DNA from: a bacterium | GTDB lineage: Bacteria > Patescibacteriota > Minisyncoccia > Phycocordibacterales > Zambryskibacteraceae | DNA: 64,000 bases | NCBI GenBank assembly: GCA_030649135.1 | Contig: JAUSGI010000008.1 | Location: forward strand, 81,935-145,934 | Reading direction: 5' to 3' | Shown here: in pieces, positions 3,954-64,000 of the stretch | How the letters are laid out: each line of letters starts with the position of its first letter | Position numbering within the stretch: the stretch's first letter is position 1 | The notes under the pieces: generated by a model | What the model was told of the DNA's origin: nothing | The model's database searches: none | Seen by the model: only the letters and a program-made list of their open reading frames with translations | Made by a program: the position numbers and the translations under genes

Positions 3954-5390
3954 TTAGAGGTTCTGCAACGGGTTAATCATGGTCAGCTGGATGTTCGAGG
4001 CCCTGTTCATCACCTGATTTCCATAGCTTAGACCGACATTTGCTCTACCTCTGGTGTAGCAAGTTTTACCGGAGTAATATCGACAAGCGGCACTACGCTC
4101 ATCGGTAAAGTCTTGGGAGCCGGCACCAAGATTTCCAAGTAGAATAGCCGAAGCCATAATGGCATCGGCCGGGTTCCAGGGGTCAGGATTCGTCTTGCCA
4201 ACCGCCGAGGCAATCTGACTTTCGATAAGGTTCCAGGTCGAAGGAATAAACTGGGCCGGCCCCATAGCGCCACCGTATCCCGGGACACCCGCAATAGGAC
4301 ACGAAACTCTAGTCCCCAAAGCGTCTCGTCCCAGATTTTTTAAAATAGTTTGCAAGAGCGGCAGGTCACGTGTCGGGTGAATACCGTTTAAAAACATTCT
4401 GCCTGTGTTGACCCCCTTGGTCTCACCGGTGGCAAGGTTCGTGATTACACAAGAACCGACATTTGCCCCGAGGTTTGACTCTTGTTGGAGGATTGCCAAA
4501 ATAAATGCCGGTCGCACTCCCGTTTTGACGCTTGCCGTTTCGGCATATTGGAGGGCCGTACCGAAGGGAATCGCTCCGGCATCTCTTAGTGGAAAGAGTA
4601 CGGCTTTAATCTGTGCTGCCTTAGCTTGTCTGTCTGCCAAGACTTGTTCGTAAGTTTTTTCTTTGGTCTGGTTAATAGCCAGGAGGGTCTTTTTCTCGGT
4701 CTGGTCTATTTCCACTTCTTTCTTGGATGCTTCCATGGCGGCGCGGGCAGCCGCCTCGGCTTCCCTTTTTTTATTCAGAATTGCTTTCTCCGTTTCGGTC
4801 AGGGTTCTGGTGGTTCTTAATTCGGTAAATAGGTCAGCCAGCGCCTGCTCGGTGGAAGCATAGGTATCTATGTCTATAAAAAATTCAGAAAGATTCTTGT
4901 CGCTTAACATGGCCTCGACTAATGAATAAGAATTGATATCGTTTGTCTTACGCAAAATATCAGCAATGGCGTTTTTACCCTTCGTGATGCGGGTATCAAG
5001 TACTACAATTTCTTTTTGCTTGACCGCGATATCTTTTGTCAGGTTAGCTATAGCAATATTTTTCCCCTTGATATTAGCTTGGGCGGCCTTTATTTTGGCA
5101 GTAAGAGCTGCAATGTCTCTAGTAAATGAGGCGCTGTCCTGTTTAGTTTTATTGAGCGTTACCGTCCATTCAGCAATCTCTTTATTACAGGCTTCAAGCT
5201 CTTGTTCAAGTTGGGCCCGACTCTTATTGGCGATTTGGTCGGTACAGGCATCTTGAGCGAGAGCGGAGTGATAATTGGGAACAATCAAAAAGCCGATAAC
5301 GAGTATCGAGACGGAAATTATTTGGAGTGGATTAAACTGGAGGTGTTTCTTTTTTGACTTCACTTTCATTGGTTTCAATAGTTTCCTCAC
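3954..5390 (-). CDS. Membrane-anchored coiled-coil protein with a C-terminal lysozyme-like / lytic transglycosylase domain
   Basis: An N-terminal TM segment is followed by a long Ala/Lys-rich coiled coil. The C-terminal domain carries 'AILQQESNLG' and 'GPAQFIPSTW', resembling the SLT catalytic region. The start may be the internal ATG near 5369. Confidence 0.55.
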   Translation of the reverse strand: MRKLLKPMKVKSKKKHLQFNPLQIISVSILVIGFLIVPNYHSALAQDACTDQIANKSRAQLEQELEACNKEIAEWTVTLNKTKQDSASFTRDIAALTAKIKAAQANIKGKNIAIANLTKDIAVKQKEIVVLDTRITKGKNAIADILRKTNDINSYSLVEAMLSDKNLSEFFIDIDTYASTEQALADLFTELRTTRTLTETEKAILNKKREAEAAARAAMEASKKEVEIDQTEKKTLLAINQTKEKTYEQVLADRQAKAAQIKAVLFPLRDAGAIPFGTALQYAETASVKTGVRPAFILAILQQESNLGANVGSCVITNLATGETKGVNTGRMFLNGIHPTRDLPLLQTILKNLGRDALGTRVSCPIAGVPGYGGAMGPAQFIPSTWNLIESQIASAVGKTNPDPWNPADAIMASAILLGNLGAGSQDFTDERSAACRYYSGKTCYTRGRANVGLSYGNQVMNRASNIQLTMINPLQNL

Positions 5391-14477: not shown

Positions 14478-14503
14478 CAAACCCCGCCAGAGGCGGGGTT
14501 TGT
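14478..14503 (-). terminator. Rho-independent terminator built on a CCCCGCC-AGA-GGCGGGG palindrome (REP-like family member)
   Basis: 'aaaccccgccagaggcggggttt' is a perfect 7-bp GC stem flanked by A and T runs, so it can terminate in either orientation. It lies 23 nt downstream of the RRM gene stop. Confidence 0.65.
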
Positions 14504-18694: not shown

Positions 18695-19075
18695 TTATTT
18701 AATGACTGCTAAAATATTGTCTTCTTTCAAGAGATAAAGTTCCTCGCCGCCCTGTTCAACTTCGTCATATCCGTATTTGGAAAAGATGACAACGTCGCCA
18801 ACCTTAAGACGCACCGGTACCAATTTTCCCTCGATCCATTTCCCCTCCCCGACGGCTAAAACTTTACCTTGAGCCGATTTCTCTTTGGTCACGGATTCAG
18901 GGAGAATAAAATTGAGTGGAGACTTTTTACCTTGAGCTTGCCCCGCCACGGCGGGGCGCAGTCGAATCTCTTCTTCGGTAAAAGGACGAACCAGAACTCT
19001 GTCCCCAAAAGGCTTGATCTGGGCTTTTGCTTGCCCGGAGTTTTTGCGAGGGGTTTTTGTATTTTTCTTTTTCAT
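18695..19075 (-). CDS. groS: Co-chaperonin GroES with a Lys-rich N-terminal extension and an internal in-frame insertion
   Basis: 'IKPFGDRVLVRP' and 'GKVLAVGEG' are GroES motifs. The protein is 126 aa against about 95 aa typical. The extra 'EIRLRPAVAGQAQ' segment is encoded by the palindrome at 18940-18957. Confidence 0.85.
   Translation of the reverse strand: MKKKNTKTPRKNSGQAKAQIKPFGDRVLVRPFTEEEIRLRPAVAGQAQGKKSPLNFILPESVTKEKSAQGKVLAVGEGKWIEGKLVPVRLKVGDVVIFSKYGYDEVEQGGEELYLLKEDNILAVIK
18940..18957. repeat. REP-like palindrome CCCCGCC-ACG-GCGGGG, in-frame inside groES
   Basis: 'gccccgccacggcggggc' with flank 'ggcggggcaagctc' on the coding strand. It is identical in core to the copy at 28582-28597 and shares the flank with 61547-61560. 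Confidence 0.7.
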
Positions 19076-28426: not shown

Positions 28427-28663
28427 TGCGGGATCGTCTAATGGTAGCCTGCCCGCCATCGCTGGGAGTTGAGCTGGGAGATCGTCTAATGGTAGGACAC
28501 CTCCCTCTGAAGGAGGTTATCTTGGTTCGAGTCCAAGTCTCCCAGCTCAGGCCCTAGCAGGCGGGGACATCGCCATCCCTGCCCCGCCGTGGCGGGGTGA
28601 AAAGGCGAGCATCTTGCTTGTCCCGGCCAGCCGGGCGGGAGTCGAGTCCAAGTCCCGCAGCCA
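28427..28663 (+). pseudogene. Fragmented tRNA-Gln(UUG)-like gene interrupted by GC-rich palindromic insertions and by an intact tRNA-Gln(CUG)
   Basis: Segments match the intact tRNA-Gln(TTG) at 39279-39352 in collinear order. 28427-28447 matches nt 1-21 (21/21). 'GACATCGCC' at 28567-28575 matches nt 22-30 (9/9). 'GGCGAGCATCTTG' at 28604-28616 matches nt 39-51 (12/13). 28647-28663 matches 'TCCAAGTCCCGCAGCCA' (17/17). They are separated by inserts that include ccccgccgtggcgggg. Confidence 0.55.
28475..28545 (+). tRNA. tRNA-Gln (anticodon CTG)
   Basis: Hand fold. Acceptor is TGGGAGA/TCTCCCA with a U1-A72 pair, as in bacterial tRNA-Gln. D-stem is GTC/GAC. Anticodon stem CCTCC/GGAGG encloses loop CTCTGAA. 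The T-arm is CTTGG-TTCGAGT-CCAAG. No CCA is encoded. Confidence 0.75.
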
Positions 28664-28711
28664 GGTTTGCTATAACTAAGCGCATGAACAAATGTGCTAC
28701 AATAAGAACAT

Positions 28712-58619: not shown

Positions 58620-59449
58620 CCGTTCGATTAGCCAAGAGATTCGGGGGAGAAATAATCTCTGCCGATTCGCGACAAGTATATAAGGGTCTTGATATCGGCA
58701 CCGGCAAGATTACCAAGCAGGAAATGCGGGGAGTCCCCCATCATCTGCTGGATGTGGTAAATCCTCGAAAACAATTCTCGGCATCGAAATACAAAAAACT
58801 AGCTGATGAAAAAGTACGATATATCGCACAAAAGCATAAGTTACCCATTGTGGTAGGAGGGACGGGGTTTTATATTGATGCCTTGACAGGCAGAGCTAAT
58901 TTTCCGGAGGTGGGACCCAATCTTCTATTACGCAAGAAGCTGGAGAAAAAAACTGCGTCTGAACTTTTCCGAATGTTAAATAAAAAGGACCCCCGGAGAG
59001 CTGGAGCAATTGATTTGAGAAATAAAGTACGTGTGATACGGGCATTGGAAATTGTCGAGGCTCTGGGCAAGGTGCCCCAAGCTAGCCCCAAGCCCCTAGA
59101 ACCTAGCCCCTTTATCTACATCGGCCTCAAACCGGATAATCTTGACGGGAGAATTCATAAGAGACTAATAGAGAGGCTTGATGGGATGATTCGCGAGGGC
59201 AAAAAACTCCACACTCAAGGACTCACCTACAAGCGCATGCACCAGCTCGGGCTGGAATATAGATATGTTGGTATGTACCTACAAGGCAAGCTCTCACGGG
59301 AAGAAATGGTTGATAAGTTATATATTGAAATAAAACGTTACGCCAAGCGCCAAATGACTTGGTTCAAACGCAATAAAAAGATTAGGTGGTTTAAACCGGA
59401 GGAATACAAAAAGATAGAAAGATTAGTAAATGTTCAGCTAAACACCTAA
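58559..59449 (+). CDS. miaA: tRNA dimethylallyltransferase
   Basis: P-loop 'GPTASGKS', 'ISADSRQVYKGLDIGT' and 'VGGTGFY'. Its start overlaps the ATPase 3' end by 61 nt in another frame. Confidence 0.85.
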   Translation: MAQQKVLVILGPTASGKSDLAVRLAKRFGGEIISADSRQVYKGLDIGTGKITKQEMRGVPHHLLDVVNPRKQFSASKYKKLADEKVRYIAQKHKLPIVVGGTGFYIDALTGRANFPEVGPNLLLRKKLEKKTASELFRMLNKKDPRRAGAIDLRNKVRVIRALEIVEALGKVPQASPKPLEPSPFIYIGLKPDNLDGRIHKRLIERLDGMIREGKKLHTQGLTYKRMHQLGLEYRYVGMYLQGKLSREEMVDKLYIEIKRYAKRQMTWFKRNKKIRWFKPEEYKKIERLVNVQLNT

Positions 59450-59842
59450 AAACTTTCGAATTTCAGCTATGGCTAGCATGTCATGGTCAATCATCTGGAG
59501 ATTTCCTAAATCATCAAACTTCCGCCAACTCTTGCCTTGACCCTCATGCTGTATAAGCGGCTGTGAAGAATCGTATTCCTCAACAAAAACGTACTTGATA
59601 TTTTCATCTTCCTTCCAATTAAATTTCTGAACTAACACCCGAACTGGCTTAGATACTTTATATTCTAGTTCTTCAAAAATTTCTCGCTCTAAAGCCGCCT
59701 CTGGAGTTTCCCCTTTCTCTATCCCTCCCCCAAAGAAACCCCAGTAGTTAGGAAGTCTTTTCGCATCCTCGTCTCTATGTTGAAGAAGGATTTCCTTATC
59801 CTTATTGTATAAGGCCAATACTGAAATATTTCTTACTGCCAT
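59438..59842 (-). CDS. NUDIX hydrolase
   Basis: Nudix box 'GGGIEKGETPEAALEREIFEELE'. Confidence 0.8.
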   Translation of the reverse strand: MAVRNISVLALYNKDKEILLQHRDEDAKRLPNYWGFFGGGIEKGETPEAALEREIFEELEYKVSKPVRVLVQKFNWKEDENIKYVFVEEYDSSQPLIQHEGQGKSWRKFDDLGNLQMIDHDMLAIAEIRKFLGV

Positions 59843-59845
59843 ATG

Positions 59846-59916
59846 CGGGCGATCGAGGAATCGAACCTCGGATAGCAGATTTGGAGGCCGCAGTTATACC
59901 ACTTAACTAATCGCCC
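59846..59916 (-). tRNA. tRNA-Trp (anticodon CCA)
   Basis: Hand fold. Acceptor GGGCGAT/ATCGCCC, D-stem GTTA/TAAC, anticodon loop CTCCAAA, T-arm CGAGG-TTCGATT-CCTCG. There is one mismatch at the 31:39 pair. No CCA is encoded. Confidence 0.7.
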
Positions 59917-59939
59917 TTCGAGGGCTATATTAGCACAGA

Positions 59940-60113
59940 CTAAGCTTTCTTCTCCTTATAAACCGTGTGTTTGCGGACGATGGGGTTATATTTTTTAAAC
60001 TCGAGTTTACGCTCTACGGATTTGCGATTTTTGCGAGAATAATAGGTGTGGCCTTTGCCGGCACCCTTTTCGTCCCCTACCGAGACTAGCTTGATGAGAT
60101 GATTCTGCGACAT
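59940..60113 (-). CDS. rpmG: 50S ribosomal protein L33
   Basis: Not in the supplied ORF track because it is under 60 aa. Translation is 'MSQNHLIKLVSVGDEKGAGKGHTYYSRKNRKSVERKLEFKKYNPIVRKHTVYKEKKA'. The pattern 'Y.T.KNKR...ERLELKKY.P..RKH..YKE' matches L33. Confidence 0.75.
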   Translation of the reverse strand: MSQNHLIKLVSVGDEKGAGKGHTYYSRKNRKSVERKLEFKKYNPIVRKHTVYKEKKA

Positions 60114-60226
60114 ACTAGACGGCTATTCGGCAATATAAACCTCTGACCCTTCTTTGGCTGGTTGACAGCCACAGAAAGCTTGTCGTACCAGTGCATCACC
60201 TTGCCAATCGGATTGTCTTTTGACAT
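60086..60226 (-). CDS. Possible small ORF (46 aa) overlapping the rpmG start; function unknown
   Basis: Translation is 'MSKDNPIGKVMHWYDKLSVAVNQPKKGQRFILPNSRLV...'. No SD checked and no family recognised. It may be spurious. Confidence 0.2.
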   Translation of the reverse strand: MSKDNPIGKVMHWYDKLSVAVNQPKKGQRFILPNSRLVCRRIISSS

Positions 60227-60296
60227 GACAATATATGTTACACCATTTATTAGATTTTGCAACTGTCTATAGTGACGATTATGGTATACTTGTAGA

Positions 60297-60581
60297 ATGC
60301 TTACTCCTCAATATTTTGTTCGTGGTTTGACACTGGGTATCGGACTAATCTATCTGATCATTGGGATAGCGAGTTTGCCGTTTACTCTTATGGCAGTAGA
60401 TCCCTCGCCGGATGGTTGGCCGGCTTTTCGTCCGTCAGTTCATCCAATAATACTAGTGCTATTCACATTGTCATTTATTTCAGCTTCAATAATCTTAATC
60501 AGACCGAGTTCCCCATCTAGACTTCGTCGGATATCTTTCTATCTCCCGTTAATAATTACTATCCTGATGTTATGGAAATAA
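60297..60581 (+). CDS. Hypothetical small membrane protein
   Basis: 94 aa with 2-3 TM helices. Confidence 0.4.
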   Translation: MLTPQYFVRGLTLGIGLIYLIIGIASLPFTLMAVDPSPDGWPAFRPSVHPIILVLFTLSFISASIILIRPSSPSRLRRISFYLPLIITILMLWK

Positions 60582-60750
60582 CTTTGGACCAGCTAGCTTG
60601 CCTTAGGCAGATTTTTTAATTAACTTAAAAACAAAAGACGCCCACCCCGCCTCCAGCACGATGCTGAGGGGAAATGAACGAAATCAATATAAAAGTAATT
60701 AGTGTGCCTGGCCGGGGTCTCTCGCGACTCTTCCAGATTCGTCCCTTTAA

Positions 60751-61170
60751 CTATGCCTCCGGAGTCTTGATTGGTACTGGTAAGCCAAACTTTCTGTGAT
60801 AGTCGAGGTCTTCAGCTTCGTAATCGAAAGTTAACTCTTCTCCTTCCGGAATATCATGGGCGGCAATATCAGAATAAATTCCATTTTCTAGAGAACCATT
60901 TGTAATGTTTGGTTCTTTCGAGTGATTGACAAATCGAGCATCATCAAAACATAGAATGTAAATGTCTGGCTTTTCTTTATCAATATAAGAATAGTTTAGA
61001 ATTTGCTCGCGACTATATTCAGAGAGGGCAACTAGATCTTCTTTCTTCAACTCTAAATCAAGGCCTGGAGTAAACTTCCAAGTAGGCGTGCCCTTTTTGA
61101 CGAACTCCGCAGCAAATAATCCAATACCGTTAATTTTACTTGGACCAATTCTTGTTTTAACGAGTAGCAT
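60751..61170 (-). CDS. SET-domain protein (putative protein-lysine methyltransferase)
   Basis: 'GIGLFA', 'FVNHSKEPN' (the NHSxxPN motif) and 'ELTFDY' (the ELxFDY motif). The start is the internal ATG 'MLLVKTR'. The supplied ORF's extended N-terminus is rejected because it overlaps tRNA-Tyr. Confidence 0.7.
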   Translation of the reverse strand: MLLVKTRIGPSKINGIGLFAAEFVKKGTPTWKFTPGLDLELKKEDLVALSEYSREQILNYSYIDKEKPDIYILCFDDARFVNHSKEPNITNGSLENGIYSDIAAHDIPEGEELTFDYEAEDLDYHRKFGLPVPIKTPEA

Positions 61171-61186
61171 ATAACATATTTTATAC

Positions 61187-61273
61187 TGGTGCGCCGGGCA
61201 GGATTCGAACCTGCGTAGACCAAAGGTCGAGGGATTTACAGTCCCTTGCGATTGACCGCTCCGCCACCGACGC
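61187..61273 (-). tRNA. tRNA-Tyr (anticodon GTA)
   Basis: Hand fold. Acceptor GCGTCGG/CCGGCGC with one G-U pair, anticodon loop CTGTAAA, long variable arm, T-arm CAGGTTCGAATCCTG, CCA encoded. Confidence 0.75.
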
Positions 61274-61281
61274 AATAACCA

Positions 61282-61521
61282 TCAATTTATCAGTTTTTTC
61301 AAACCATTGCCACCTTTGTAAGATTTGATCTTCTTTTCTCTCTCAAAAGCTTCTTGTTGTCCCTCGAACAATTCCAAATGGACTATTTCCCACGGACAGC
61401 CAAGTTTTGTAGATAAATTTTGACCTTTATTATGTTCCTTCAGCCTCCTTTTATAATTATTTGAGCACCCTATATAATATTTTCTATTCTTTTTGCTCTG
61501 AAGAATATATACATGCCACAT
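61282..61521 (-). CDS. GIY-YIG nuclease-superfamily small protein (YhbQ/UPF0213-like)
   Basis: 'WHVYILQS...KYYIGCSNN...RRLKEHN' matches the GIY-YIG core. Confidence 0.7.
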   Translation of the reverse strand: MWHVYILQSKKNRKYYIGCSNNYKRRLKEHNKGQNLSTKLGCPWEIVHLELFEGQQEAFEREKKIKSYKGGNGLKKLIN

Positions 61522-61538
61522 GTCCGTGCGATTGATTC

Positions 61539-61588
61539 CGCCCCGCCTCGGCGGGGCAAGCTCCGCCTTTACCCCGCTGTGGCGGGGA
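61539..61588. repeat. Two tandem REP-like palindromes (CCGCCCCGCC-TC-GGCGGGGC and ACCCCGC-TGT-GGCGGGGA) between the GIY-YIG gene and clpB
   Basis: The first copy carries the 'ggcggggcaagct' flank, identical to the groES-internal copy. On the minus strand the pair would act as a terminator for clpB. Confidence 0.65.
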
Positions 61589-61641
61589 CCGACACGATGG
61601 GGCTATTCTAATCGAAATCTGACGGACTTGCAAAAATACTT

Positions 61642-64000
61642 CTATTTCAGCGCAGGTTCTCTGCTTGATACAACTGTACTCACATGACCCGAGCGTTTGC
61701 TCCTCTTAATATCGAAAGTAAATTGGCCATCTTTCACATCAACCGAAACCGTACCACCGGAAAGCACTTTATTGGATATCATCATGGAAGCCACCGGGTT
61801 CAGAATTTTTTCCTGAATCAGACGCTTCAGGGGTCTTGCTCCGTACTGTGGATTATAACCTTCTGCGGCCAAGAGTTCCGACACCGACTCCATGACCGAA
61901 AGGTTGATTTCCTTTTCTGCGAGACGCTTCTTAATGATATCGATTTGGATATTAACAATTTCTTTGATTGCCTCCTTGGAGAGTATGTCGAAGATAATAA
62001 TATCGTCAAGACGGTTGAGAAATTCCGGTCGGAAATGCTCTTTGAGGGTCGAGAGCACTTTCTCTTTAACACCCTCGTAAGTTTCCTTCTCGCCACTGTT
62101 GAAGCCGATGGATTGCATCTTGTCTATGTATTGGGCACCAATGTTTGAGGTCATGATGATGACCGTGTTTTTGAAATTAATAACCCTACCCTTGGCATCG
62201 GTCAGACGACCATTATCGAGGATTTGCAATAAAATGTTAAACACCTCCGGATGCGCCTTCTCAATCTCATCGAAAAGGATGACCGAATATGGCCTGTGTC
62301 GCACAGACTCGGCAAAACTGGAACCTTCTTCGAAGCCGACGTATCCCGGTGGCGCGCCAATCAGTTTGGAGACGGAATGCTTTTCCATAAACTCCGACAT
62401 ATCTACGCGGATGAGTGCCCGTTCATCGTCAAACATAAATTCCGCCAAGGCCTTAGTCAGCTCGGTCTTACCCACCCCAGTCGGACCAAGAAAGATGAAA
62501 GAACCGATAGGACGATTGGGGTCGGAGATACCGGCGCGCGAACGCTTGACGGTGTCAGCAATCTTTTTGACTGCCTCGCCTTGACCGACAATACGCTTCT
62601 TGAGGAATTCTTCCATTCGGGAAAGTTTGGCCGCTTCTTCTTCAAGCATTCTGGAAACCGGGATACCGGTCCACCGACTGACTACCAGCGCGATATCGGG
62701 TGCGGTAATTTCTTCTTTCAGAATGCTCCTGGAACTTTGAAGTTTTTTCAGACGCTTGGCTTTGGCTTCTAATTCTTTCTCCAGACCCGGTATCTGGCCG
62801 TATCGAAGTTCCGCCGCGCGGGAAAGGTCGGCGCGTGCCTCCGCCGCTTCGGCCTCAAGTCGCAGAGTTCCCAGAGTTTTTTTAATCTCCTTGATTTCCC
62901 CTACCGTTTCTTTCTCATTTTTCCACTTCAACTCTATCTCCGAAGTCTTCTCGCGCAAATCGGCAATATCTTTGTCAATAACTTTCAGTCGTGCTTTCAC
63001 TTTAGGGTTCCCGGACTCTTTCTTAAGTGCTTCCTTCTCGATATCTAACTTCATAATCTTGGAGTGGGCATCCTGAAGCACCGGCGGCATATTCTCGAGA
63101 GAAATTTTGAGAAACGAAGATGCCTCGTCTATAAGGTCTACCGCTTTATCCGGCAAAAACCTGTCAGTGATATAACGCGAAGAGAGATTAACGGCTGCTT
63201 GGATAGAATCATCGGTAATACGCACCCCATGATAGAGTTCGTACCTTTCTTTCAATCCACGCAAGATGGTCACGGCATCATCGATAGAAGGTTCCTGAAC
63301 ATAAACGGGCTGGAAACGGCGGGTCAAAGCCGGGTCTTTCTCGATATGTTTCTGATATTCACGCAGAGTTGTGGCACCAATAGCCCGTAGTTCCCCTCGA
63401 GCGAGTGAAGGTTTGAGCATATTGGAGGCATCCATAGCCCCTTCCGCGGCACCGGCGCCGACGATGGTATGAATTTCATCTATAAACAGAACAATTTTGC
63501 CTTCCGATTTTTCGATTTCTTTAATGATATTTTTGAGCCGCTCTTCAAATTCGCCGCGGTACTTGGTGCCGGCAATCAAGAGTCCGATATCGAGAGACAC
63601 CAATTCCTTATCCCGCAGAGATTCCGGGACGTTGCCGCTTGCCATGCGTAGTGCCAGTCCTTCGGCAATGGCAGTCTTACCGACGCCCGCTTCACCGATG
63701 AGAATCGGATTATTTTTGGTACGGCGGGAAAGAATTTGGATAATGCGCGAGATTTCATCATCGCGACCAATAACCGGGTCGAGTTTATTTGCCTTGGCAA
63801 GCATGGTTAGGGAACGGGTGTATTTGGAAAGAGATTTATATTTCTTCGATTCTTTCGGCTCGGTGGGGCTGGTCTTTTTCAGTTCCTCAAGCACCTTTAG
63901 AATTGTTTGTCTGTCGATTTTAAATTTTAAAAGAAGTTCACGCGCTTCTCCCGGAACATCGAGTACCGCGATAAATAGATGCTCGGTGGAAACAAATTCA
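61642..64000 (-). CDS. clpB: Chaperone ClpB (5' end beyond the window edge)
   Basis: D1 Walker A '[10 protein letters not shown]', Walker B '[12 protein letters not shown]', a long middle coiled coil and D2 '[14 protein letters not shown]'. The frame stays open upstream of the annotated GTG to the window end, with N-domain-like '...[10 protein letters not shown]...'. Confidence 0.9.

Follow-up and report, generated by a model that had tools for sequence, protein, structure and literature searches.

Layout of the locus

We analyzed a 64,000-nucleotide (nt) stretch of contig JAUSGI010000008.1 from a patescibacterium of the family Zambryskibacteraceae (the window; all window positions are numbered within it), whose minus strand carries at 60751-61521, in the order of transcription, an open reading frame (ORF) for a GIY-YIG nuclease, a tRNA-Tyr(GTA) gene, and an ORF for a SET-domain protein. 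Upstream of the GIY-YIG gene lie two GC-rich palindromes, which are embedded in a relic second copy of the 5' half of the tRNA-Tyr gene. An earlier reading made from the letters alone (the sequence-only reading) had named all four elements, and each is present where it was placed. The features along the transcribed strand are:

61605-61634, minus strand: promoter-like element TTTGCA-N18-TAGAAT, found by a consensus scan, ending 9 nt 5' of relic position 1
61522-61595, minus strand: relic of the tRNA-Tyr 5' half, comprising the acceptor 5' strand, the D arm and the anticodon-stem 5' strand, and stopping at the GIY-YIG ATG
61572-61587, minus strand: hairpin 1 (read on this strand, CCCCGC-CACA-GCGGGG), separating the acceptor strand of the relic from its D stem
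61541-61556, minus strand: hairpin 2 (read on this strand, CCCCGC-CGAG-GCGGGG), splitting the relic D loop after GAGC and before GGAATC
61282-61521, minus strand: GIY-YIG nuclease gene, 79 amino acids (aa), single domain (Pfam GIY-YIG, E=3.8e-16)
61187-61273, minus strand: intact tRNA-Tyr(GTA) with encoded CCA (ARAGORN; Rfam tRNA, 58.8 bits)
60751-61170, minus strand: gene for a stand-alone SET-domain protein of 139 aa, a predicted protein lysine methyltransferase (Pfam SET, E=1e-11)
60634-60654, minus strand: terminator-like hairpin and T run, 3' of the SET stop

The genes are tightly packed, with 8 nt between the GIY-YIG stop and tRNA-Tyr and 16 nt between the CCA end of the tRNA and the SET ATG. 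The promoter-like element, which is also kept in the relative L082, is probably the original tRNA-Tyr promoter, now driving the whole unit, and the hairpin with its T run is likely to mark the end of that unit. We posit, as part of an explanation that we hold with moderate confidence, that the locus forms one minus-strand transcription unit from promoter through terminator. The clpB gene lies upstream on the same strand, with its stop at 61642, and is intact, extending past the window edge; an N-terminal truncation was rejected as an artefact of that edge, the alignment reaching base 63999.

A relic tRNA-Tyr half with inserted hairpins

The two palindromes, CCCCGCCTCGGCGGGG at 61541-61556 and CCCCGCTGTGGCGGGG at 61572-61587, share the pattern CCCCGC-N4-GCGGGG, which occurs four times in the window versus 0.10 expected, a count reached in none of 100 shuffles. 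Read from the clpB stop, the minus strand presents TTTGCA-N18-TAGAAT, CGTGTCGGT, hairpin 1, TAAA-GGCGGAGC, TTG-hairpin 2-CGGAA, TCAATCGCACGGAC, and then the GIY-YIG ATG, and the intact tRNA-Tyr begins with GCGTCGGTGGCGGAGCGGTCAATCGCAAGGGAC-TGTAAAT. When the two hairpin insertions of ~20 nt are removed, the upstream element is identical to tRNA-Tyr positions 3-30 at 27 of 28 sites; hence, it duplicates the acceptor 5' strand, D arm, and anticodon-stem 5' strand of tRNA-Tyr, with the GIY-YIG start codon occupying the position of the anticodon loop. The REP-like palindromes of the sequence-only reading are thus real, but instead of being free-standing they are insertions within the relic; similarly, they do adjoin the GIY-YIG gene, but rather than following it they lie upstream on the transcribed strand, between the clpB stop and the GIY-YIG ATG.

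Searches with the GIY-YIG protein alone recovered related loci (L082-L092) whose nucleases are 67-91% identical to that of the window, and the relics and tRNAs of seven genomes, the window and six relatives, were aligned. Each relic follows the tRNA of its own genome (one subclade has GGCGGAGC/TCAATCGC, the other GGTAGAGC/TCAATTAC), so that the D-stem pairs of the relic co-vary, from CG to UA in three of the seven and from GC to AU in two. Such tracking implies either gene conversion between the two copies or selection on the relic. Hairpin 2 occupies an identical position in every relative aligned, its stem surviving G-U and one U-A change; hairpin 1 is found in the relics of L082, L085, L087, and L091 and is missing from those of L088 and L089. 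The 3'-terminal ~36 nt of a GIY-YIG ORF (...GNGLKKLIN and the stop) lie before the relic in L085-L087, showing that an older copy of the gene was once present at that place. L091 has an extra hairpin-laden partial copy of tRNA-Tyr 3' of the intact gene, and in L088 a 3' fragment follows the tRNA-Tyr. Separately, the relic of L086 (3960-4030) shows a tandem duplication of the segment comprising the D stem and hairpin 2 (GGCGGAGCTTGCCCCGCCATGGCGGAGCTTGCCCCGCCATGGCGGGG), suggesting that the hairpin region is prone to slippage.

The GIY-YIG nuclease and its conservation with tRNA-Tyr

The 79-aa protein matches the Pfam GIY-YIG profile (PF01541) over residues 1-69 with 59.6 bits against a cut-off of 22.6 bits. 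Residues Y5, Y16, G18, R26, and H30 are invariant, and the glutamate of the REK motif (E62) is kept wherever the homologue sequences extend that far. The closest solved structures are the UPF0213 proteins 1zg2 and 1ywl (E=1e-3), followed by SLX1. No DNA-binding module beyond the catalytic domain is present in the 79 aa, and the matches to homing endonucleases in PHROGs and PADLOC span only residues 1-34 or 1-68. The homologues of several relatives are annotated as proteins of 89-93 aa.

The same layout is found in all of L082-L092, with tRNA-Tyr starting 3-9 nt after the GIY-YIG stop. Relative by relative, identities to the window are 91, 85, 77, and 68% for GIY-YIG, 69, 67, 61, and 43% for MiaA, and 92, 93, 83, and 74% for ClpB; the MiaA range for the clade is 43-69%. 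As the divergence of the nuclease parallels that of MiaA and ClpB and its catalytic residues are kept, the gene appears to be under purifying selection and vertically inherited within the clade. The unit, hairpins included, is also retained where it does not adjoin clpB, in L082-L084 and L091. Hence, the GIY-YIG/tRNA-Tyr pair is a conserved composite of the clade; the accessory flavor ascribed to it by the sequence-only reading is at odds with a unit whose nuclease is 67-91% identical alongside a ClpB of 74-93%.

Recurrence of the composite at tRNA-Tyr and tRNA-Ser genes

We scanned metagenomes with the hairpin GAGCTTGCCCCGCCNNGGCGGGG as seed, which yielded 43 loci; this sample is biased for an association between hairpin and GIY-YIG gene and is silent on the frequency of hairpin-free relics. 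With the hairpin removed, the flanks correspond to positions 1 to 28-44 of a downstream tRNA. That tRNA is tRNA-Tyr at nine loci (L174 and L180 among them) and, with a clear match, tRNA-Ser (gct or cga) at six, namely L148, L150, L156, L179, L181, and L188, to which weaker Ser-associated cases may be added; the layout thus recurs. Where resolved, the ORF between relic and tRNA codes for a GIY-YIG protein of 78-80 aa, 41-77% identical to that of the window, and ends 3-12 nt before the tRNA. In the relic tRNA-Ser halves the hairpin is again inserted in the D loop, at the same insertion point. The relic of L171 spans a complete anticodon loop, CTGTAAA (tRNA positions 1-39), followed by AACA-ATG, which places the breakpoint at about tRNA position 37-39. 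In L174 and L180, the relic is kept and the tRNA follows 63 nt later, the GIY-YIG gene being gone; this state looks like loss of the gene, not an empty site. The rpmG of L180 is 96% identical to that of the window. In about 20 of the 43 loci, the hairpin lies in other settings.

Other copies of the hairpin and small repeats

Within the window, a further copy (18941-18956) lies in frame in groES (18695-19075, minus strand), where its flanks, GAGCTTG...CG.AGTC, are those that it has in the relic D loop. The encoded Cpn10, of 126 aa versus the 93 positions of the profile, gains about 10-13 residues from it (RLRPAVAGQA) in the mobile-loop region. The remaining copy (28582-28597) follows tRNA-Gln(CTG) (28475-28546) in a 120-nt GC-rich stretch (28547-28668) whose end repeats the 3' end of tRNA-Gln at 18 of 20 sites (28641-28660), a score reached in none of 500 shuffles. 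This stretch looks like a relic second tRNA-Gln riddled with insertions, and at L149 three hairpins are found inside a second tRNA-Gln copy. Given these occurrences, the hairpins appear to be small mobile palindromes that build up where a tRNA copy is redundant.

Other small repeats were seen alongside. At L151, L152, L155, L158, L165, L167, L177, L183, and L189, the hairpin is nested in larger inverted repeats, TGTCATYCY-GAGC[hairpin]...GARGRATC, whose outer arms resemble the GTCAT...GGGAATC shape of the Neisseria-type NTS/SRM repeats. A related palindrome, CCCCGCCAGAGGCGGGG, lies at 14482-14498 of the window between a DUF192 gene and an RRM-domain gene, convergent or adjacent to one another, with A and T runs on its flanks, and looks like an ordinary bidirectional terminator. 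On unrelated Patescibacteria contigs, a common motif, ACTTCGACTCGC...GCTCG(T/C)TCAGTGTAAACAC, follows tRNA genes (L076 3940-4000, L085 4364-4470, and L045 3594-3640), with an inverted copy nearby in L085; it may represent another small repeat family tied to tRNA 3' flanks.

The SET protein belongs to a large family of stand-alone SET domains

The SET gene starts with the ATG at 61170, a longer 174-aa ORF with a TTG start being one that would overlap tRNA-Tyr. Its product scores 45.6 bits against the Pfam SET profile (PF00856; cut-off 22.4 bits), covering profile positions 1-104 of 105, and its motifs read G15-I-G17, RFVNHSKEPN (R79-F-V-N82-H83-S), and GEELTFDY (E111-E112-L-T-F-D-Y117). These align with the same motifs in KMT2D and SETD2, and M1, S11, G17, F19, D76, R79, N82, H83, I107, E112, and Y117 are invariant in 99 aligned homologues. 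An AlphaFold2 model (mean predicted local distance difference test score, pLDDT, 92.5; predicted template modelling score 0.83) matches the SET domains of MLL1, vSET (3kma), NSD1, and SETD2 with a Foldseek probability of 1.00, with a template modelling score of 0.80 when normalized to vSET. The intactness of the motifs claimed by the sequence-only reading is thus upheld by alignment. As in vSET, there are no pre-SET or post-SET cysteine clusters. The domain fills the 139 aa, with the Pfam match at residues 15-117 and strands from residue 6, and no signal peptide or added host-targeting domain was found: the invariant N-terminus, MLLVKT, forms the first strand of the fold (pLDDT 97), in keeping with the earlier remark that no secretion signal is obvious.

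A database search recovered 682 relatives, nearly all single-domain proteins of 126-145 aa, and a profile search of 1.84 billion cluster representatives (50% identity) found 240 at E<=1e-30 and 2360 at E<=1e-10. These counts run counter to the view that bacterial SET proteins are uncommon. Loci with products 45-55% identical come from Methanosarcina, Methanoperedens, Woesearchaeota, Hyphomicrobium, Myxococcota, and cyanobacteria; 131-aa Methanosarcina proteins are 51% identical over their full length, and 53 IMG/VR viral contigs, many of 200-435 kb, encode relatives. No match to the protein was found in PADLOC, PHROGs, or NCBIfam. Hence, it is an intact and ordinary member of a large, by no means rare, family of stand-alone SET proteins of ~130 aa. 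Its motifs and fold predict a catalytically competent, cytoplasmic lysine methyltransferase, whose most likely target would be an abundant basic nucleic-acid-binding protein of its own cell, by analogy with the methylation of MC1-alpha by the Methanosarcina homologue.

The SET gene as a single-gene hitchhiker

Downstream of the SET gene, the window carries an ORF for a 94-aa membrane protein on the opposite strand, rpmG, tRNA-Trp, a NUDIX gene, and miaA. The backbone in relatives (ClpB 74-93% identical) reads clpB, GIY-YIG, tRNA-Tyr, a variable slot, a small gene, rpmG, tRNA-Trp, and miaA. The slot, filled by SET in the window, holds a short-chain dehydrogenase (SDR) gene in L082-L084, a second GIY-YIG and a DUF4145 gene in L085, a helix-turn-helix (HTH) gene in L086, and unknown genes in L087, L088, L089, and L091; SET is absent from it in all close relatives. 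One relative's contig, CAZSOL010000001.1 (L011 and L089), has a SET gene 95 kb away whose product is only 53% identical to that of the window. Among the three closest homologues with genomic context (L190-L192), that of L190 (72% identical) lies 10 nt after the gene for the ribonucleotide reductase small subunit (Ribonuc_red_sm, nrdB), that of L191 (2612-3405; 58% identical) lies 2 nt after atpH in an F-type ATP synthase operon and overlaps the next gene, and that of L192 lies between ParE and HicAB modules. With variable content in the slot and the nearest homologues in unrelated operons, SET is accessory and behaves as a promoterless single-gene hitchhiker, and on this point the accessory status proposed by the sequence-only reading stands. 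There is no Shine-Dalgarno-like sequence upstream of it.

At 60164-60226 (minus strand), only the first 21 codons (MSKDNPIGKVMHWYDKLSVAV) are left of an 84-aa gene that precedes rpmG in L083 and L087, the remainder being deleted, which suggests a rearrangement no earlier than the arrival of SET and the 94-aa membrane ORF. The latter (60297-60581, plus strand), with two or three predicted hydrophobic helices, is convergent with SET and has no match in Pfam, NCBIfam, PADLOC, or PHROGs; a sequencing run also yielded a short contig (L001) that carries both genes.

Of 80 genome loci, 23 have the mini-SET gene beside another SET gene, which is longer and bears a CxCxxxxC post-SET motif; a membrane histidine kinase gene is near the mini-SET in 15 and a gene for a 190-aa membrane protein in 10 of the 80. 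None of these three is in the window. The mini-SET and the longer SET suggest a two-SET module that is missing here. The two-SET loci include L002, L016, L021, L027, L030, L033, L036, L038, L041-L044, L047, and others, from Patescibacteria and Hyphomicrobium-like genomes.

Several links between SET and its neighbors were tried and rejected. For integration-site repeats of tRNA-Tyr 3' of the SET gene, the best local score was 18-19 versus a shuffle mean of 18 and maximum of 27, and at five other loci where a tRNA is followed by SET, the search turned up only paralogous tRNAs; hence, SET is not bounded by repeats that derive from a tRNA. As to a general SET-tRNA link, a same-strand tRNA lies at most 61 nt upstream in 5 of the 80 genome loci and in the window, a different tRNA each time; the rough expectation is 0.24 with 33 tRNAs placed uniformly and about 1-2 with intergenic spacers only, leaving a weak enrichment. 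A general link between SET and GIY-YIG genes also failed, the GIY-YIG profile finding neighbors only in L045 and, 3 kb away, in L027. At L045 (3520-4406; Sungiibacteriota), tRNA-Gly, a GIY-YIG gene (product 37% identical to that of the window), and SET follow one another on one strand; this SET is 59% identical, the closest among species-representative genomes, and its frame is broken (ORFs 3992-4192 and 4140-4406).

Comparison with known systems

Short palindromes dispersed in genomes are known as Rickettsia palindromic elements and REP/REPIN sequences. The hairpins here are likewise GC-rich and dispersed, with one in frame within a protein gene (groES), but their ~20-nt unit is much shorter, and they are markedly associated with relic copies of tRNA genes; the window showed no transposase of the RAYT type. 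Integrative elements that target tRNA genes carry a replacement part of the tRNA gene. The present locus resembles them in having an intact tRNA at one end of the insert and a displaced part of a second copy at the other; in contrast, the duplicated part is the 5' half, not the 3' end, and the insert is a single 240-nt gene without an integrase.

The nearest described system to the GIY-YIG/hairpin unit is the Ssn family (CDD cd10448), in which single-domain GIY-YIG proteins of ~94 aa cut single-stranded DNA (ssDNA) beside hairpin repeats that flank their genes and are also dispersed (PMC11893778). Judged against the published description of SsnA, our protein is similar in its single GIY-YIG domain (79 aa, in a class of about 80-100 aa) and in catalytic spacing, and its gene is flanked by hairpin repeats dispersed elsewhere in the genome. 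Unlike in Ssn, however, the hairpins are on the 5' flank only, with none on the 3' flank, and the gene lies between a relic tRNA half and an intact tRNA, tRNA genes being unmentioned in PMC11893778. The published SRM regular expression (PMC11893778) has one unrelated match in the window (35135) versus 0.34 expected, and none at the hairpins. Our literature search on GIY-YIG, tRNA, and candidate phyla found nothing relevant.

GIY-YIG genes among or inside tRNA genes have a precedent in phage T4 SegB, a GIY-YIG homing enzyme in a tRNA gene cluster (PMC2330249). The layout also fits the break-and-repair copying, with co-conversion of flanks, of free-standing homing genes. However, SegB-type enzymes are of ~200 aa and have DNA-binding domains, unlike the bare 79-aa catalytic domain seen here, and no presence/absence polymorphism that would fit recent homing was seen within the clade.

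The SET protein resembles the Methanosarcina mini-SET (Go1-SET) and the chlorovirus vSET in being a stand-alone SET domain of about 120-140 aa. According to the summary in PMC3980110 (of Manzur and Zhou 2005), the M. mazei protein methylates the chromatin protein MC1-alpha in vitro; we infer that the assayed protein, AAM32541 (Go1-SET), is an orthologue of the 131-aa Methanosarcina proteins in our alignment. Unlike Go1-SET, however, ours belongs to a bacterial host without MC1 or histones, so that its substrate must differ, and unlike both Go1-SET and vSET, it has a 10-aa C-terminal tail and a gene embedded in a tRNA transcription unit.

Origin of the composite and rival explanations

We favor, again with moderate confidence, an origin in which copying brought the GIY-YIG gene, along with a new 5' half, into the tRNA-Tyr anticodon loop. 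The route of entry could have been homing-like break-and-repair or a duplication at microhomology, for which the TGT common to the anticodon loop and the ATG-TGG start is a candidate. The event would have duplicated tRNA positions 1 to ~37 and rebuilt the intact, essential tRNA downstream, stranding the old 5' half with the promoter. This dead copy would then have been colonized by the GC hairpins as small mobile palindromes, which may also be the recognition motif of the nuclease, by analogy with the Ssn nucleases. The unit would be transcribed from the tRNA promoter, and maturation of the embedded tRNA, by RNase P and at its 3' end, would split the transcript into a GIY-YIG mRNA whose leader is structured, the tRNA, and a SET mRNA with a short leader, SET having presumably been acquired as single-gene cargo in the post-tRNA slot.

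Several observations weigh against this account. The intact tRNA-Tyr still contains the presumed target sequence and the 79-aa protein lacks a DNA-binding domain, which makes classical site-specific homing doubtful. Among the loci examined, no empty sites (uninterrupted alleles) were seen, and the same arrangement would result from a simple tandem duplication with a later deletion. Inheritance of the unit within the clade looks vertical, leaving recent mobility unsupported. The hairpins fail the published Ssn-related motif and also sit in relic tRNA-Gln copies without an adjoining GIY-YIG gene. The promoter and terminator are known as consensus matches only, and the SET substrate is proposed purely by analogy, MC1 being archaeal.

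A bolder version, which we put forward only tentatively, is that single-domain GIY-YIG genes of Patescibacteria constitute a minimal selfish element specialized on class II tRNA genes (Tyr and Ser), splitting them at the anticodon loop, regenerating them by 5'-half duplication, and keeping an Ssn-like recognition hairpin in the dead D loop, from where the hairpin spread to other relic tRNAs and to groES. It is likewise conceivable, although we consider it rather doubtful, that nuclease and hairpin form an Ssn-type pair, the nuclease binding the hairpin in ssDNA and cutting beside it, with the tRNA relic merely the residence of gene and motif; the companion proposal, that the hairpins are spread or maintained by the nuclease activity, with GAGCTTGCCCCGCCNNGGCGGGGTGAAGTC on either strand as the predicted ssDNA target, we regard as no less speculative. 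Such a pairing would agree with the published picture of Ssn genes, which are mostly flanked by hairpin repeats of 20-50 nt that are also dispersed in the genome (PMC11893778), with the catalytic spacing Y5/Y16/E62 against Y6/Y17/E64 in SsnA, with the two hairpins at the 5' flank and further copies at 18941 and 28582, and with the company of the same hairpin and GIY-YIG homologues at both tRNA-Tyr and tRNA-Ser loci. However, that last association is biased by the hairpin seeding of the metagenome scan, none of the hairpins matches the degenerate SRM pattern, all those at the gene are on its 5' side, and the nearest solved structures are UPF0213 proteins. A more prosaic alternative is that the palindromes are ordinary terminators or REP-like elements of clpB, the relic a decaying by-product of tandem duplication, and the GIY-YIG protein a resident housekeeping nuclease sharing a transcript with tRNA-Tyr. 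The position of the hairpins after the clpB stop, the vertical inheritance of the unit with a divergence similar to that of MiaA, and the terminator-like palindrome at 14482 are in its favor. Nevertheless, we consider it unlikely, as the hairpins lie within the tRNA homology, downstream of the promoter-like element, lack the T run of terminators, persist where the unit does not adjoin clpB (L082-L084 and L091), and recur at the same D-loop insertion point in tRNA-Ser relics, and as the relic is conserved far beyond the expectation for junk and tracks its tRNA.

Bacterial group I introns of tRNA genes sit in the anticodon loop, with GIY-YIG genes as common passengers. Given the insertion point, a self-splicing intron with the relic as 5' exon might therefore be entertained, but this is effectively refuted: the ORF has 0 nt on its 5' side and 8 nt on its 3' side, too little to house a ribozyme, a search of 59000-64000 against Rfam (E<=1) gave no match to any intron family, the relic is disrupted by two insertions, and a complete tRNA with its own 5' half comes next. 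As regards SET, many Patescibacteria are episymbionts. Secreted bacterial SET effectors such as NUE, RomA/LegAS4, and BaSET exist (PMC3980110), and the sequence-only reading had accordingly raised a link to host interaction, under which the protein would methylate host histones or nucleoid proteins. We regard such a host-directed role as very improbable. The family is common to free-living bacteria, Methanosarcina, and viruses, with homologues ~50% identical in free-living Hyphomicrobium, Myxococcota, and cyanobacteria, and the protein has neither extra targeting domains nor a match in PADLOC or PHROGs; MLLVKT, as a conserved structural strand, leaves no place for a signal peptide.

Conclusions

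What is new here is the composite of a nuclease gene and a tRNA relic; the SET family and the pairing of a tiny nuclease with hairpins, as in Ssn, were already known. The SET protein is one more member of its family and shows that this family can spread, one gene at a time and without a promoter, into the housekeeping operons of very small genomes. The relic with its hairpins explains GC-rich palindromes and tRNA fragments that annotation would otherwise read as terminators, N-terminal extensions, or noise, and the unit indicates that an essential single-copy tRNA gene can be invaded without functional loss. The idea of a tiny Ssn-type nuclease acting with a hairpin may thereby gain a concrete genomic niche in the candidate phyla. 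If true, the view of the unit as a selfish element would amount to an undescribed way for a nuclease gene to live in an essential single-copy tRNA gene, using its promoter.

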